A stretch of 64,000 nucleotides of DNA from Gammaproteobacteria bacterium (GTDB taxonomy: Bacteria > Pseudomonadota > Gammaproteobacteria > UBA12402). A program made the position numbers and the translations under genes. The stretch covers positions 34,475 through 98,474 of the forward strand of contig JASFHF010000001.1 in assembly GCA_050123375.1 (NCBI GenBank), in the 5' to 3' direction. Numbering within the stretch: the stretch's first letter is position 1; every line of letters starts with the position of its first letter. The notes below the pieces were generated by a model. The model was not told the origin of the DNA. It did not search any database and worked only from the letters and a program-made list of their open reading frames with translations. This document shows positions 1,641-62,964 of this stretch, in pieces.

Positions 1641-1700
1641 GTTTGCAAACTCTTGAGCGCATGGAAGCGCGAACGAAGTATTACATGGATGTACTTTTCA
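1641..1700. repeat. GC-rich hairpin cluster with CAT-GG-ATG tip (family D, copy D0)
   Basis: 'gcgcatggaagcgcg' and 'agtattacatggatgtactt' form stem-loops with the same tip motif as D1-D4. Confidence 0.5.
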
Positions 1701-1784
1701 ATTACGCCAAGCATGTTGCGTAATTGAAAAGACGCGTTTGCAAATAAGCTCGCCGAAAGGTGCACTAAAAAGCATAACATTCTC

Positions 1785-2813
1785 ATGGTAAACAATTACA
1801 ACACAAAAACAAACTTACTCAATTTCGACCGCACAAAAATGCGTGAATATTTTGCAGCACTCGGTGAAAAACCATTTCGCGCCGATCAAATTATAAAATG
1901 GATTCACAAACACGGTCTACAAAACTTCGACCAAATGACTAATCTAAGCAAAAAATTGCGTGCCTACTTAAACGAACATGCAACAATCTTGCCGCCAAAA
2001 ATCATCAAACAACAAACATCTACCGATGGAACCGTAAAATGGCTATTGGAATTAGAAGACAAAAACCATATCGAAATGGTATTTATCCCAGAAAAAACCC
2101 GCGGCACTTTATGCATTTCATCACAAGTTGGCTGCCCTTTAAAATGCACATTTTGTTTCACCGGCAAATTAGGCTTTAAGCGCAATTTAACTACTGCAGA
2201 AATTATTGGTCAAGTTTGGTTAGCCGCAAGAGAATTTAACCTAACCAACGTAGTTTTAATGGGCATGGGCGAACCATTATTAAACTTTGATAATGTAATT
2301 ACCGCAACCAATTTAATCATGGACGATTTAGCTTATGGATTATCAAAATATCGAGTAACCTTAAGTACCGCAGGAATCGCGCCTGCAATTGAAAAACTAT
2401 CTAAAACAAGTGACATTGCACTAGCAGTTTCACTACACGCACCTAATGATAAATTACGCGATCAATTAGTTCCAATTAATAAAAAATATCCACTAAAAGA
2501 ATTAATACGTGTTTGTAAAAATTATTTCCCAACACAATCACGCCGCAAAATTTCATTTGAATACATATTGATTAAAAATATTAACGACTCACCAGAACAC
2601 GCCAAACAATTAGTAAAATTATTGCAAGGTGTTCCAGCAAAAGTAAATTTAATTCCCTGTAACTCCAAACCTGGTTCAGATTATCAATGCTCAGCCATTG
2701 AGGATTGCGAAATTTTTAGAAACATCTTAATCAAAGCCGGCATCCAAACTATTATCCGTAAAACCCGCGGTAGTGATATTGACGCCGCATGCGGACAACT
2801 GGCCGGAAAATAA
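1785..2813 (+). CDS. rlmN: 23S rRNA/tRNA (adenine-C2)-methyltransferase RlmN, radical SAM
   Basis: It has the [11 protein letters not shown]xxxCxxC radical SAM motif. The N-terminus '[25 protein letters not shown]' matches RlmN. Confidence 0.9.
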
Positions 2814-2832
2814 CATTTTCACTTTAATTTTT

Positions 2833-2945
2833 TTATTAAGTTATTGCTGATAGGTTTTAAACCGAATAGACCGCCCTGGATGCGCGGTCGGGAGGCACAT
2901 GGATGTGCCATTGAGGTTTAAAACCTATCAGCAATAACTTAATAA
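2833..2945. repeat. large hairpin: 31-bp perfect inverted repeat enclosing a 51-nt GC-rich twin-hairpin core (family D, copy D1)
   Basis: Arm 2833-2863 is the reverse complement of arm 2915-2945. The core is 'gaccgccctggatgcgcggtc' plus 'ggcacatggatgtgcc'. It lies between convergent rlmN and ugd. Confidence 0.85.
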
Positions 2946-2947
2946 TG

Positions 2948-4279
2948 CTACCTTCCAATACCAATATAGTGAAAACCCAAATCTCGAAGCTGTTGCGGAT
3001 CATATTGATTACGACCATCAAGAATTAAATTGCCGCGCATTGTGGATTTAATCTGCGTAAAATCAGGATTGCGAAATTGTTTCCATTCAGTAAACAATGC
3101 TAACACATCAGCATCTTCTACCGCATGATGTTGATGTTCAACTAACTGCAATGCTCCTTGCTCAAACCATTTCGTTGGCAATACTTTACGCGCCGCTGAC
3201 ATTGCAATTGGATCATAAGCTTTAATCACCGCACCCCGCTCAATTACTGCATGCAAAAAATCAATCGATGAGGCTTCACGCATATCATCTGTTTCCGGCT
3301 TAAACGCCAATCCCCACATTCCAATAGTTACATTTGAAAGATCTTCACCAAATTTCGTAATTATTTTTTTTGTCATCACTTGTTTTTGATATTTATTCAT
3401 CTCATCAACTGCAGATAAAACTTTAGACTCAAATCCACAATTTTTTGCCATATGAATTAATGCTCTAACATCTTTTGGGAAACATGAACCACCATAACCA
3501 CAACCAGGATAAATAAACGAAAAACCAATCCGTGAATCTGAACCAATGCCTTGACGAATATTTTCTACATCTACATTTAAACATTCACAAATATTCGCTA
3601 TTTCGTTCATAAAAGAAATTTTGGTTGCAAGTATTGCATTAGCTGCATACTTTGTCATTTCTGCGTCTCTAACACCCATAAAAATGATACGTTCATGATT
3701 TCGGGTAAACGGTGCATAAAGTTTTTTCATGATATCACGCGCTTTTTCGCTATCAGTACCAACAATAACTCTATCCGGACGCATTGCGTCATTTACCGCA
3801 TCACCCTCTTTTAAAAACTCTGGATTACTAACCACATCAAATTCTATATTAAGTTTACGCTGCTTCAATTCCTGTTGAATTGCATCTTTAACCTTTTCTG
3901 CAGTAGTTACCGGCACCGTAGACTTGTTAACAATAATTGCATAATCATTAATATATAGCCCAATATCTTTAGCTGCAGTTAACACATATTGTAGATCCGC
4001 TGAGCCATCACCATTACTTGGTGTACCAACTGCAATAAAAAATATTTTTGGCTGAATTTTAAGTTCCTGCAATGAACTCACAAAGTGTAATCTTTTCGCT
4101 TGATAATTCTTTTTAACCAATTCTGCAAGGCCTGGTTCATAAATTGGCATGATACCTTGTTTTAATTTTTCAATTTTATGCGCATCAATATCAACACAAA
4201 CAACATTGTTTCCCATTTCGGCAAAACAAGTACCACTTACTAAACCAACATAACCTGTTCCGATTACTACGATGTTCAT
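2948..4279 (-). CDS. ugd: UDP-glucose 6-dehydrogenase
   Basis: It has the 'MNIVVIGTGYVGLVSG' Rossmann N-terminus and the 'GGSCFPKD' catalytic Cys motif. The track ORF extends to 4345, but the extra 22 aa are encoded by an ME-2 repeat copy. An SD 'ggag' precedes ATG 4279. Confidence 0.85.
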   Translation of the reverse strand: MNIVVIGTGYVGLVSGTCFAEMGNNVVCVDIDAHKIEKLKQGIMPIYEPGLAELVKKNYQAKRLHFVSSLQELKIQPKIFFIAVGTPSNGDGSADLQYVLTAAKDIGLYINDYAIIVNKSTVPVTTAEKVKDAIQQELKQRKLNIEFDVVSNPEFLKEGDAVNDAMRPDRVIVGTDSEKARDIMKKLYAPFTRNHERIIFMGVRDAEMTKYAANAILATKISFMNEIANICECLNVDVENIRQGIGSDSRIGFSFIYPGCGYGGSCFPKDVRALIHMAKNCGFESKVLSAVDEMNKYQKQVMTKKIITKFGEDLSNVTIGMWGLAFKPETDDMREASSIDFLHAVIERGAVIKAYDPIAMSAARKVLPTKWFEQGALQLVEHQHHAVEDADVLALFTEWKQFRNPDFTQIKSTMRGNLILDGRNQYDPQQLRDLGFHYIGIGR

Positions 4280-4303
4280 AAATTCTCCAATATTTTTTGG
4301 GCC

Positions 4304-61105: not shown

Positions 61106-61342
61106 AAATCTCTTCATTTTTATTTTTAAAAAAGATGAATTTATTGTACTTCTTATTTGCTTAAACAAATTTTGCCTAAAATCTATACAATTTTGATAAG
61201 ACCCAAATTAAAACTAAAATACAATAAAACCAAACAGTTATATCTTGAAATCCAACCACGTTATCACACGACGAACCCTGACAATTTGAATCTTAACCCA
61301 AATTCGTATAAGATGTGCGTTTTCATAATAAGGACAGGACTT

Positions 61343-61452
61343 ACGTGAAAAGATGAGATGCGAGAAAAAAGCGAGCGAAAGACGCGAGTTTATAAATAAT
61401 AAATGAGCGGCTTGAATGAGCTTTTAACAAAGCAGATCGCTTTTCACGTAAG
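61343..61452 (+). repeat. ME-2 MITE-like repeat, copy D (14-bp perfect TIR 'acttacgtgaaaag')
   Basis: 'acttacgtgaaaagatgagatgcgag...aacaaagcagatcgcttttcacgtaagt'. Confidence 0.85.
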
Positions 61453-61467
61453 TCCTGAAGGGTAAAA

Positions 61468-62778
61468 ATGAGCAGACTAACAATAACAGACCTAACACCT
61501 GGTGAAAAATATCGTTTTTTACCGTGGTTAATTTGCGGCATTGGCGCAGCATTTTATCTTTACGAATATTTCTTACGTATTGCGCCCAGCGTGATGACTT
61601 CTGACTTGATGCACGCTTATCATTTATCTGCCGCACAACTGGGGAATTTATCTGCTTATTTTTATTACGCTTATACTCCCATGCAATTAATTATTGGCGT
61701 GTTATTAGATCGCTATGGTCCACGTTATTTACTATTACTCGCCTGCGCTGCTTGTACTGCTGGAGCCTTTATATTTGCCGGCAGTAATCATATATTTTTA
61801 GCGCAACTAAGCAGATTTTTAATTGGTTTTGGTTCCGCATTTGCATTTGTTGGCGCATTAAAATTAGCTACCATTTGGCTGCCGCTGGAACGTTTTGCAG
61901 CAATGTGTGGATTAGTATCTACATTAGGTATGATTGGCGCGATCAGCGGCGATATTTTATTAACCAAACTTTTAGAAAATTATGGCTGGCGTCATTCAAC
62001 TTACATATCAGCCTGGCTCGGTGTAATTTTAACTGTGTTAATATTTTTAATTGTGCGCGATAAGGTAAAAACCAAATCAGAACGCCACCAAGCTTATCAT
62101 CTTGAATTAAATTTAAAAGAAGTTTGTATTGGGTTATTGCAAGCAATAAAAAATCCATATATTTGGTTAACCAGCACCATCGGTTGTTTTTTATTTTTAT
62201 CCTTATCTGCATTTGCAGAATTGTGGGGCATTCCATATTTAACTCAAGCTCATGGATTAACTCGAGCTACCGCAGCAACTGCTATTTCAATGGTATTTTG
62301 GGGATGGGTAATTGGCGGCCCTTTGGCAGGCTGGGTTTCTGATTACACTAGACAACGAAAATTGCCAATCATGATCGGCTCATTATTATCGGCAATCACT
62401 TTTTGTATTATTTTATACGTACATCATTTATCGCCAACCTCTTTATTTATTTTATTATTCATTTTCGGTGTTTTAACCAGTGTTGAAGTAATTGTGTTTG
62501 CAATTGGACGTGAAATTAGTCCCAATAAACTTGCCGGAACCAGCATTGCATTAACCAACGCAATTATTATGTTAGGCGGCGCAATATTCCAGCCAATTAT
62601 CGGCATGCTGTTAGATGCGTCCTGGCAAGGAAAAATGATGCATGGCATTCGGTTCTATTCAGCGCATAATTATAAAATTGCGTTAACTATTTTACCGATT
62701 GGCTTTATACTAACTTTTATCCTAAGCTTTTTCTTGCGTGAAACACATTGTCATGTTCAGAAGAAAAAAGACGAATAA
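61468..62778 (+). CDS. MFS transporter
   Basis: It has a 12-TM pattern and a 'GVLLDRYGPR' MFS loop motif. Confidence 0.8.
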   Translation: MSRLTITDLTPGEKYRFLPWLICGIGAAFYLYEYFLRIAPSVMTSDLMHAYHLSAAQLGNLSAYFYYAYTPMQLIIGVLLDRYGPRYLLLLACAACTAGAFIFAGSNHIFLAQLSRFLIGFGSAFAFVGALKLATIWLPLERFAAMCGLVSTLGMIGAISGDILLTKLLENYGWRHSTYISAWLGVILTVLIFLIVRDKVKTKSERHQAYHLELNLKEVCIGLLQAIKNPYIWLTSTIGCFLFLSLSAFAELWGIPYLTQAHGLTRATAATAISMVFWGWVIGGPLAGWVSDYTRQRKLPIMIGSLLSAITFCIILYVHHLSPTSLFILLFIFGVLTSVEVIVFAIGREISPNKLAGTSIALTNAIIMLGGAIFQPIIGMLLDASWQGKMMHGIRFYSAHNYKIALTILPIGFILTFILSFFLRETHCHVQKKKDE

Positions 62779-62823
62779 ATAAAAATAAAAGTTACTTGGT
62801 AGAAAGAAATTTATATGTACAAT

Positions 62824-62860
62824 GGAGAGGTGTCCGAGCTGGTTTAAGGAGCACGACTGG
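62824..62860 (+). other. duplicated 5' half of tRNA-Ser (37 nt, identical to 62965-63001), followed by a GC-rich hairpin insert (family D, copy D4, 62861-62964)
   Basis: 'ggagaggtgtccgagctggtttaaggagcacgactgg' occurs twice. The copies are separated by 'ggcgaagcattgcttcgcc' and 'gctcagcatggatgctgagc' hairpins. Confidence 0.85.
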
Positions 62861-62964
62861 GTGAGTCGGTGTCAGTTTAGGCGAAGCATTGCTTCGCCCC
62901 GGCGAACGCTCAGCATGGATGCTGAGCCGGATCAATCACCATGGATGGTTGCTTGGTTTTAAGT

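Follow-up and report, generated by a model that had tools for sequence, protein, structure and literature searches.

Five intergenic hairpin clusters on one strand

We analysed a 64-kb window, the whole stretch of contig JASFHF010000001.1 that stands above, and found five intergenic clusters of GC-rich hairpins with GGA-bearing loops, named A to E in the following and compared here with the TwoAYGGAY RNA motif. The clusters lie next to ndk, rlmN, ugd, tatD, htpG, mrdA and a tRNA-Ser gene (Table 1). The window has a GC content of 36.7%, and the nearest relatives of its proteins are found in uncultured Gammaproteobacteria and in metagenome-assembled genomes of Legionellales. Each of the five regions folds into several hairpins within a closed structure, the z-scores ranging from -2 to -12 (A, -5.1 at -56.7 kcal/mol; B, -12; C, -8.3; D, -5.5). 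The distance between the two loop GGAs of a cluster is 24 nt in A, 23 nt in B, 21 nt in C, 29 nt in D and 26 nt in E; each copy holds 2–5 GGA (five in D), further GGA are located in the linkers, and the 3′ tail of C adds GGAGGAG. A closing helix, P1, varies from 7 to 31 bp and is absent in E. Cluster A is flanked by a direct repeat (TAAAAACAT / TAAAAAGCAT), a possible target duplication of ∼10 nt, and the GGA strand of C is antisense to both lolC and tatD.

A sequence-only reading of the window had described hairpins with a common TGGATG tip, two sets of which would be enclosed by long perfect inverted repeats of unrelated sequence at the 3′ ends of genes. This description holds: the six hairpin strings it quoted (marked in Table 1) are all present at their sites, the 31-bp and 24-bp inverted repeats of B and C are 100% complementary and mutually unrelated in sequence, and their arms abut the ends of rlmN (stop at 2813) and ugd (stop at 2948) for B and of tatD (stop at 22266) for C. 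The tip also passed the comparison with dinucleotide-shuffled sequence that had been asked of it. The motif CATGGATG has 7 matches on both strands together versus 1.76 ± 1.36 after shuffling, and 0 of 100 shuffles reached 7; six of the seven matches are on the + strand, all of them within the five clusters.

Single GGA-loop hairpins with weak stems are frequent by chance (59 on the + strand, 79 on the - strand). This generic census was uninformative and was replaced by a test for twin hairpins with GC-containing stems. Pairs of such hairpins 12–40 nt apart occur five times on the + strand and never on the - strand, where shuffling predicts a mean of 0.31 and a maximum of 2 for the + strand. 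The five pairs are B, C, D, E and one chance match antisense to tRNA-Gly, and A does not pass the GC-pair filter of this census. Within the five cores (368 nt) we counted 18 GGA versus 1 TCC (binomial p = 1.2e-6); over the whole + strand GGA (528) is rarer than TCC (761). The + strand is C-rich across the window (GC skew -0.08 to -0.26) and is probably the lagging strand, because most highly expressed genes sit on the - strand. Mutational GC skew was rejected as the cause of the GGA excess, as it points the opposite way. The clusters are thus real and non-random, and only the GC-rich, twin, AYGGAY-tipped form of the hairpins is distinctive. Since the instances were picked by requiring hairpins, covariation counts on them would be circular.

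Table 1. Positions of the hairpin clusters, their parts and other features of the window (P1, closing helix; X, repeat family described in the last section)
Locus	Feature	Position	Strand	Sequence or size	Context
A	cluster	1619..1768	+		between ndk and rlmN
A	closing stem	1622-1628 / 1759-1765		GTGCACC / GGTGCAC	7 bp plus further pairs
A	hairpin	1657-1670	+	GCGC-AUGGAA-GCGC
A	hairpin	1677-1695	+	AGUAUUAC-AUGGAU-GUACU	quoted string AGTATTACATGGATGTACT
A	AT-rich hairpin	1694-1731		13 bp
B	cluster	2833..2945	+		between convergent rlmN and ugd
B	P1 arms	2833-2863 / 2915-2945		31 bp	100% complementary
B	hairpin	2869-2889	+	GACCGC-CCUGGAUGC-GCGGUC
B	hairpin	2894-2909	+	GGCAC-AUGGAU-GUGCC	quoted string GGCACATGGATGTGCC
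A, B	genes			ndk, rlmN (+), next ugd, galU, epimerase, manC (-)
C	cluster	22167..22267	+		between lolC and tatD, both on -
C	P1 arms	22167-22190 / 22244-22267		24 bp	100% complementary
C	hairpin	22198-22219	+	CGCGC-CCAUGGAUGGAA-GCGCG	quoted string CGCGCCCATGGATGGAAGCGCG
C	hairpin	22221-22236	+	GGCAC-ACGGAG-GUGCC
C	genes		-	lolCD, tatD
D	cluster	55994..56196	+		between divergent htpG and mrdA
D	outer AT-rich imperfect repeat	55994-56014 / 56178-56196		∼19-bp stem
D	inner stem	56022-56028 / 56162-56168		GCTTGCC / GGCAAGC	7 bp
D	hairpin	56051-56073	+	GAAAUUUGC-UGGAU-GCAAAUUUC	quoted string GAAATTTGCTGGATGCAAATTTC
D	hairpin	56075-56106	+	GCGCGG..GGC-AUGGAU-GCC..CCGCGC	quoted string GGCATGGATGCC at 56085-56096
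D	terminal hairpin	56137-56163
D	genes			htpG (-), next mrdA, rodA, mltB, rlpA, MFS transporter (+)
E	cluster	62861..62963	+	103 nt	GC-rich insert upstream of tRNA-Ser(GGA)
E	promoter-like sequence	62796..62823	+	TTGGTA-16-TACAAT	just 5′ of the partial tRNA copy; consensus match alone
E	partial tRNA-Ser 5′ half	62823-62860	+		identical over 38 bp to 62964-63001 (direct repeat), with its end in the anticodon loop
E	hairpin without GGA	62880-62898
E	hairpin	62908-62927	+	GCUCAGC-AUGGAU-GCUGAGC	quoted string GCTCAGCATGGATGCTGAGC
E	hairpin	62933-62955	+	CAAUCACC-AUGGAU-GGUUGCUUG
E	tRNA-Ser, as called	62964-63054
E	genes			tRNA-Ser, ffs, tRNA-Leu (+), next purA (-)
	ffs (SRP RNA)	63073-63169
	inverted repeat around ffs	63054-63074 / 63165-63185		21 nt	AT-rich, 90% complementary
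	X copies	4296-4420, 5292-5428, 61335-61457			one orientation
	X copy	44928-45043			opposite orientation
	∼75-nt palindrome copies	∼24785-24860, 26042-26120, 26157-26235, 30598-30670, 35065-35135, 42125-42200, 53820-53895, 60255-60330
	GC-rich hairpin repeats	8575-8680, 43379-43491, 44737-44817
	imperfect inverted repeat	19856-20122		127-nt arms	70% complementary
	restriction-modification pair	14-1140	+		immediately 5′ of ndk
	open reading frame	46373-53134	-	2253 aa	lowest-GC part of the window (0.32-0.34)

Relationship to the TwoAYGGAY motif

A search of the whole window with Rfam at gathering level recovered tRNAs and the signal recognition particle (SRP) RNA alone. A permissive scan of 1.4 kb missed B owing to its filters, and narrow permissive scans were required, in which TwoAYGGAY (RF01731) was the top family match at B, C and D. 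The match is full-length at B (2825–2953, + strand, 36.2 bits, E 1.4e-4) and C (22154–22279, + strand, 32.5 bits, local E 1.2e-3) and confined to the core at D (56045–56113, + strand, 35.9 bits, local E 2e-4). On the - strand B reached 25.5 bits, 10.7 bits less than on the + strand, a strand specificity seen likewise in the GGA counts and in the exclusive occurrence of twin hairpins on the + strand.

TwoAYGGAY was described by Weinberg et al. 2010 (PMC2864571) as a motif with two AYGGAY terminal loops and a P1 helix that in many cases is very long, 24 bp for example, and in some very small; it was reported from Clostridia, gamma-proteobacteria and gut metagenomes. The model consensus has the loops CAuGGAUG and CCaUGGAuGG enclosed by a long AT-rich outer stem, and in Psychromonas ingrahamii the motif is present many times with tips reading ACAUGGAUGU. 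The clusters share with the motif the GC-rich hairpins, the two terminal loops, the closing P1, the gamma-proteobacterial host, the multiple copies and the lack of a fixed gene context. Every copy has at least one exact AYGGAY loop and one near-match (E, AUGGAU twice; B, CUGGAU and AUGGAU; C, AUGGAU and ACGGAG; D, CUGGAU and AUGGAU; A, AUGGAA and AUGGAU), and P1 is present in B (31 bp, perfect), C (24 bp, perfect), D (7 bp plus the outer ∼19 bp) and A (7 bp or more). In contrast to the described members, one loop per copy often deviates from AYGGAY (CUGGAU, ACGGAG, AUGGAA), A carries extra hairpins, E lacks P1, the P1 stems are perfectly complementary and the scores amount to 32–36 bits versus a cut-off of 43 bits. 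The host is also different, being an uncultured Legionellales-like lineage.

Judged from these sequence comparisons, the five loci are probably divergent, sub-threshold members of TwoAYGGAY, with A and E as architectural variants. What had been taken as a structure conserved without its sequence, the long perfect arms, thus corresponds to P1, whose variability the TwoAYGGAY authors had already described; the arm sequences can be unrelated because P1 needs only to pair. Their perfection suggests recent formation or correction of palindromes at the DNA level. The same earlier proposal of a conserved core recognized by a protein or RNA is borne out in so far as the tip corresponds to the motif's AYGGAY loop and resembles a high-affinity site for CsrA/RsmA. 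TwoAYGGAY has been catalogued since 2010, and its function is still a proposal. An AT-rich outer stem as in B and C also encloses a genuine RNA gene of the window, ffs, which supports the reading as RNA elements: the inverted repeat around ffs begins directly after tRNA-Ser and reaches beyond the mature RNA (Table 1).

Turnover of the clusters among close relatives

Comparison with related loci revealed empty sites for four of the clusters. L002 (82% RlmN identity) lacks both A and B; its ndk–rlmN and rlmN–ugd spacers measure 23 bp and 1 bp, respectively. E is absent in L168 (86% identity of the major facilitator superfamily (MFS) transporter), which carries a single intact tRNA-Ser and an AT-rich spacer with no insert. 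C is absent in L166 (89% TatD identity), where the tatD–lolC spacer is 55 bp. At the same site L165 (93% TatD identity) and L167 (86%) contain elements in the orientation of C with different content: the hairpins are CAC-AUGGAU-GUG and GAAC-AUGGAU-GUUC (L167 has AUGGAU in both loops), and their arms resemble those of C over the inner ∼12 nt alone, the outer parts being different. The L165 and L167 cores are identical at 41 of 42 positions, with TatD proteins 84% identical, whereas the core of C shares its stems with B and A of the window itself. Three species thus keep two GGA-tipped hairpins at this site while stems, hairpin order and P1 arms have all changed. This retention fits selection on the loops, which we count in favour of an RNA function, and it fits exchange among copies within a genome as well.

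A scan of metagenomes with IleS yielded one close relative, L005, which covers none of the hairpin loci, and a scan of genomes with RodA likewise yielded one, L085 (91% nucleotide identity), which begins inside the terminal hairpin of D, matches the window at 100% in its first ∼100 nt and finishes inside an X copy (X3). Even between close relatives, elements have been gained, lost or remodelled, a behaviour that they have in common with dispersed repeats.

The ndk–rlmN spacer is a hotspot among the relatives. L004 holds an unrelated inverted-repeat element there (GTCATCCTGAGGAAGC...GCTCCTTCAGAATGAC, 3885–3990), and the 330-bp spacer of L001 (3672–4000) contains degenerate GGA hairpins, CUAUGGAU and CCG-AUGGAAA-CGG. 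Upstream of ndk the window encodes a restriction-modification pair, an N6/N4 DNA methylase and a TdeIII-type endonuclease; L001 has no restriction-modification genes at this position and carries in their place tRNA-Ser(CGA) and a tRNA-Ser-like unit of ∼160 nt, named U. This unit is absent from the window and is found at 2930–3112 in L001 and at 2130–2312 in L168, just 3′ of tRNA-Ser(CGA) and tRNA-Ser(GGA), respectively, with 88–90% identity between the two. U resembles the 3′ half of tRNA-Ser, and its T loop (TTCGA|AT) carries an insert of ∼84 nt with GGA-loop hairpins (AGGAU(A/U) and ACAGGAUGU loops) and with one hairpin that differs wholly between the genomes. ARAGORN found no transfer-messenger RNA in U and this identity was rejected; U may represent a GGA-hairpin RNA on a tRNA scaffold.

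Predicted binding of CsrA

Rfam curators placed RF01731 in the Rfam clan for Csr-Rsm protein binding. In PMC4333381 a CsrA-site model was matched to TwoAYGGAY and sequestration of CsrA was proposed, with validation as work in progress. The optimum for CsrA obtained by in vitro selection (SELEX) is RUACARGGAUGU, where AC/GU pairs close a hexaloop that contains the GGA, and one CsrA dimer bridges sites 10–63 nt apart, with an optimum given as >18 nt. The tip of the hairpins in the window, (AC)AUGGAU(GU), comes close to this optimum: loop and closing pairs agree with the consensus at 9–10 of 11–12 positions, ACAUGGAUGU is present in A, B, L165 and L167, and CAUGGAUG in all five loci. The GGA loops thus stand in a RUACARGGAUGU-like context, and the spacing of the paired sites (21–29 nt) suits one CsrA dimer.

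On balance we favour, with moderate confidence, the view that the five clusters are fast-evolving copies of a TwoAYGGAY-class RNA offering paired sites for CsrA, which they would titrate or recruit locally. Transcription of the + strand, binding of CsrA and the regulatory outcome are what we infer from the sequence. A P1 helix of free sequence would present two GC-rich hairpins with A(Y/N)GGA(Y/N) loops and further GGA in the linkers, so that the transcribed + strand of each copy would carry two putative high-affinity CsrA/RsmA-type sites and could act as a dual-site trap for one dimer. E would act within the leader of the tRNA-Ser transcript, from whose precursor it would be freed; the promoter-like sequence 5′ of the partial tRNA copy would place E in this precursor. 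The untranslated parts of the ndk–rlmN, rlmN and mrdA transcripts would be the sites of action for A, B and D, while C would have to act from an antisense or independent transcript and would need a promoter of its own. The twin-GGA module in unit U beside tRNA-Ser genes in the relatives and the location of E in a tRNA-Ser leader both point to stable-RNA transcription units and lend support to this view. We consider the mechanism plausible.

Several observations weigh against it. The scores of B, C and D all remain under the curated 43-bit gathering cut-off of RF01731, and A and E gave no match to this model at E ≤ 10. No csrA came up in a tblastn search of the window and the close loci, and at C, antisense to both neighbours, we saw no convincing promoter on the + strand. 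Five copies in 64 kb are far denser than known Csr/Rsm small RNA (sRNA) genes. The ∼100 stem pairs are all Watson–Crick with no G–U, which is more typical of DNA palindromes than of selected RNA helices. The stems are longer and more stable than those of the SELEX hairpins, and very stable stems may disfavour CsrA. Finally, binding of CsrA by TwoAYGGAY is still a hypothesis in the literature we found (PMC4333381).

Some of these points would equally suit a TwoAYGGAY-type RNA whose partner is not CsrA but, for example, a different RNA-binding protein that forms dimers, an RNA, or a nuclease such as RNase III, for which the long P1 would be the substrate. Perfect helices of 24–31 bp have the length of RNase III substrates. 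Membership in the family was built on structure and loops only, binding of CsrA by the family is so far a proposal (PMC4333381), and the stems exceed those of the CsrA SELEX ligands in stability. We nevertheless regard a different partner as quite unlikely, given the fit of loop and closing pairs to the CsrA consensus, a site spacing compatible with dimer bridging and the place of RF01731 in the Csr-Rsm clan.

The clusters share with the Csr/Rsm decoy sRNAs (CsrB, CsrC, RsmX, RsmY, RsmZ) the dense GGA in hairpin loops and linkers, the strand asymmetry and a site spacing suited to CsrA dimers. They differ from these sRNAs in having 2–5 GGA per copy, in lying within untranslated regions and leaders and in being far more numerous. 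The loci gave no match to the Rfam families of these sRNAs at E ≤ 10, and neither a GacA/LetA box nor an intrinsic terminator was seen at them. A spacer RNA of a tRNA precursor in E. coli, 3′ETS-leuZ, sponges sRNAs by base pairing. By analogy E, located in the leader of a tRNA transcript, would be freed by tRNA processing and could titrate a regulator, which in contrast to the known case would be a protein.

The window offers a compact natural test set: its five copies, diverged from one another, occupy defined settings in transcripts, namely the leader of a tRNA, untranslated regions at 3′ and 5′ ends and a single antisense site, and sister genomes have empty sites. Binding of CsrA to these copies would confirm the proposed function of TwoAYGGAY and would mean that Csr titration is not limited to a few dedicated sRNAs but also involves many modules that are dispersed and embedded in transcripts. 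In Legionella, to which the host lineage is related, CsrA governs the life cycle.

A possible origin as DNA repeats

The turnover described above raises the question of whether the clusters are primarily dispersed or mobile palindromic DNA repeats, comparable to miniature inverted-repeat transposable elements (MITEs), repetitive extragenic palindromic (REP) sequences or REPIN-like elements, for which binding of RNA or CsrA would be incidental or secondary. We consider this a possible though not a probable alternative. Hairpin tips in single-stranded DNA would be recognized by a transposase or nickase, or the units would spread via template switching, and the long arms would be pre-existing hairpins entered at the loop or inverted copies of a flank made at insertion, the latter an option that the sequence-only reading had also raised. 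The variable presence of A, B, E and C among the relatives is in line with this, as are the direct repeats at A (∼10 nt) and E (38 bp, ending in the tRNA anticodon loop). The related module of unit U, placed precisely within the T loop of a tRNA-like arm that existed beforehand, has no duplication beside it, which favours insertion into existing hairpins. Pieces of sequence are shared between copies: the GGCAC/GUGCC stem by B and C, GCGC-AUGGAA-GCGC by A and C, and GCTTG..GCACCGCAG.GAGG at the start of both A and D. The near identity of the L165 and L167 cores at 84% TatD identity, the perfect Watson–Crick pairing of every stem, the contigs of relatives that break within D and C and the presence of at least four other intergenic repeat families in the genome also speak for repeats; family X, unrelated to the clusters, has unique arms too, one of which is ancestral coding sequence in copy X2.

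Similar tips indeed belong to repeats elsewhere. In Pseudomonas loci found as RodA outgroups (L114–L161), twin hairpins CCCGG-CAUGGAUG-CCGGG and GGGC-CAUGGAUG-GCCC, for example at 16690–16737 (- strand) and 17150–17196 (+ strand) of L140, are part of larger intergenic repeats, with ∼170-nt inverted copies in both orientations; between species the stems vary by compensatory changes (AACCCGG, AUCCCGG, ACCUCGG). Repeats of GC-rich Pseudomonas genomes thus include the TwoAYGGAY-type tip as well.

Against a DNA-level explanation, no transposase, integrase or REP-associated tyrosine transposase (RAYT) gene was found among those of the window's open reading frames (ORFs) that were scanned with Pfam, and no matches were obtained in plasmid or phage collections. 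The length of the putative duplication is not fixed (∼10 bp at A, 38 bp at E, none at B and C). GGA is enriched in unpaired linkers too and is strongly strand-specific, and unlike members of REP or MITE families the copies share almost nothing beyond their loops. An 8-mer is the only sequence common to all five loci, which does not match what defines REP/RAYT or MITE families, and a simple repeat family was rejected because the loci have no shared k-mer beyond 8 nt. The clusters resemble REP sequences, bacterial interspersed mosaic elements (BIMEs), REPINs and MITE-like repeats (Correia elements, Rickettsia palindromic elements) in being short, intergenic, hairpin-forming and multi-copy, in their turnover among relatives and in the assembly breaks; they differ in having no shared stem or terminal sequence, with the loops alone conserved, in a strand-specific manner. 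Mobility is moreover compatible with an RNA function: elements that arose by mobility or template switching could still serve as RNAs.

A combination of this kind, which is tentative and in our view unlikely, would regard TwoAYGGAY-type modules as movable cassettes that enter existing hairpin loops, or are template-switched, and spread CsrA-binding sites genome-wide. Targets would be anticodon and T loops of tRNAs and palindromes at gene ends, and entry would leave direct (10–38 bp) or inverted (24–31 bp) copies of the flanks and would shape X as well. The direction in which an inverted flank was copied could be polarized only for X (5292–5428) and not for the hairpin clusters. Such cassettes would amount to a mobile rewiring of a global post-transcriptional regulator. 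The pattern of turnover, in which the loops are fixed, the rest is replaced and the arms are perfectly complementary, presents a clean case for studying the origin and persistence of long bacterial palindromes, and the most interesting point is whether the modules and X spread via entry into hairpin loops or via templated insertion with copying of a flank.

Terminators and other candidate identities

The location of B and C had led the sequence-only reading to suggest bidirectional terminators. B indeed lies between convergent genes, C follows directly after the stop codon of tatD with a weak CUUUUAU after its stem on the tatD strand, and the structures are very stable, yet terminator scans found no terminator-like site at any of the five loci and a T-run is absent after the stem of B on either strand. 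Gene 3′ ends are the setting of only two of the five loci: A has co-directional genes on both sides, D is part of a divergent promoter region and E is located upstream of a tRNA. The loops enclosed by the arms of B and C measure 51–53 nt and are multi-hairpin, which like the conserved GGA tips is not a feature of terminators, and relatives cope with spacers of 1 bp (rlmN–ugd, L002) and 55 bp (tatD–lolC, L166). A role as bidirectional intrinsic terminators or as 3′-end stabilizers of the flanking genes is accordingly very improbable.

Three further identities were rejected with no dedicated test: integron attC sites, as the arms have no R″/R′ GTTRRRY cores; a retron non-coding RNA, as no reverse transcriptase is encoded nearby; and restriction-site effects, as the neighbouring endonuclease is TdeIII-like.

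Other repeats in the window

Copies of family X (Table 1) have a conserved core of ∼97 nt (AAAAGATGAGATGCGAGA...CAGATCGCTTTT), each within different inverted repeats of 10–25 nt, and their orientation relative to transcription is mixed. The reading frames of the galU-like gene and the epimerase gene end in two of the copies, from which they take their final codons and stop (...KSDLLC*). X is absent at the epimerase/galU junction of L005, where the genes overlap; in this comparison the arm at 5404–5428 is ancestral coding sequence, so that 5292–5316 is the inverted copy. It is also absent at galU/ugd in L002, and the insert is flanked by a direct duplication of ∼12 nt (AAAAAT(A)TTGG).

A palindromic intergenic repeat of ∼75 nt (GTAGGCGGGACGCGAGCTTCACATAATTACAA...TTGTAATCATGTGAAGCTCCGTCC) is present in at least eight copies, one pair of which is a tandem duplication with a 115-bp period (26042–26273). 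GC-rich hairpin repeats of a further family (TGTCATCCCGCGACC...GATCGCGGGATCC / CTGGATCCCGCGGTCAA..CCGCGGGATGAC) adjoin tRNA-Trp, tRNA-Thr and the tuf region and also lie upstream of lspA. The 2253-aa ORF on the - strand had no Pfam match at E ≤ 1e-4 and may encode a large surface or effector-like protein. The imperfect inverted repeat at 19856–20122 shares TTCTGTGG.A.CTACCGCGCATG...CTCATGATTTTACA..AACAA...TGTAAAATCATGAGTTCC with 40669–40790, upstream of rplK/nusG.

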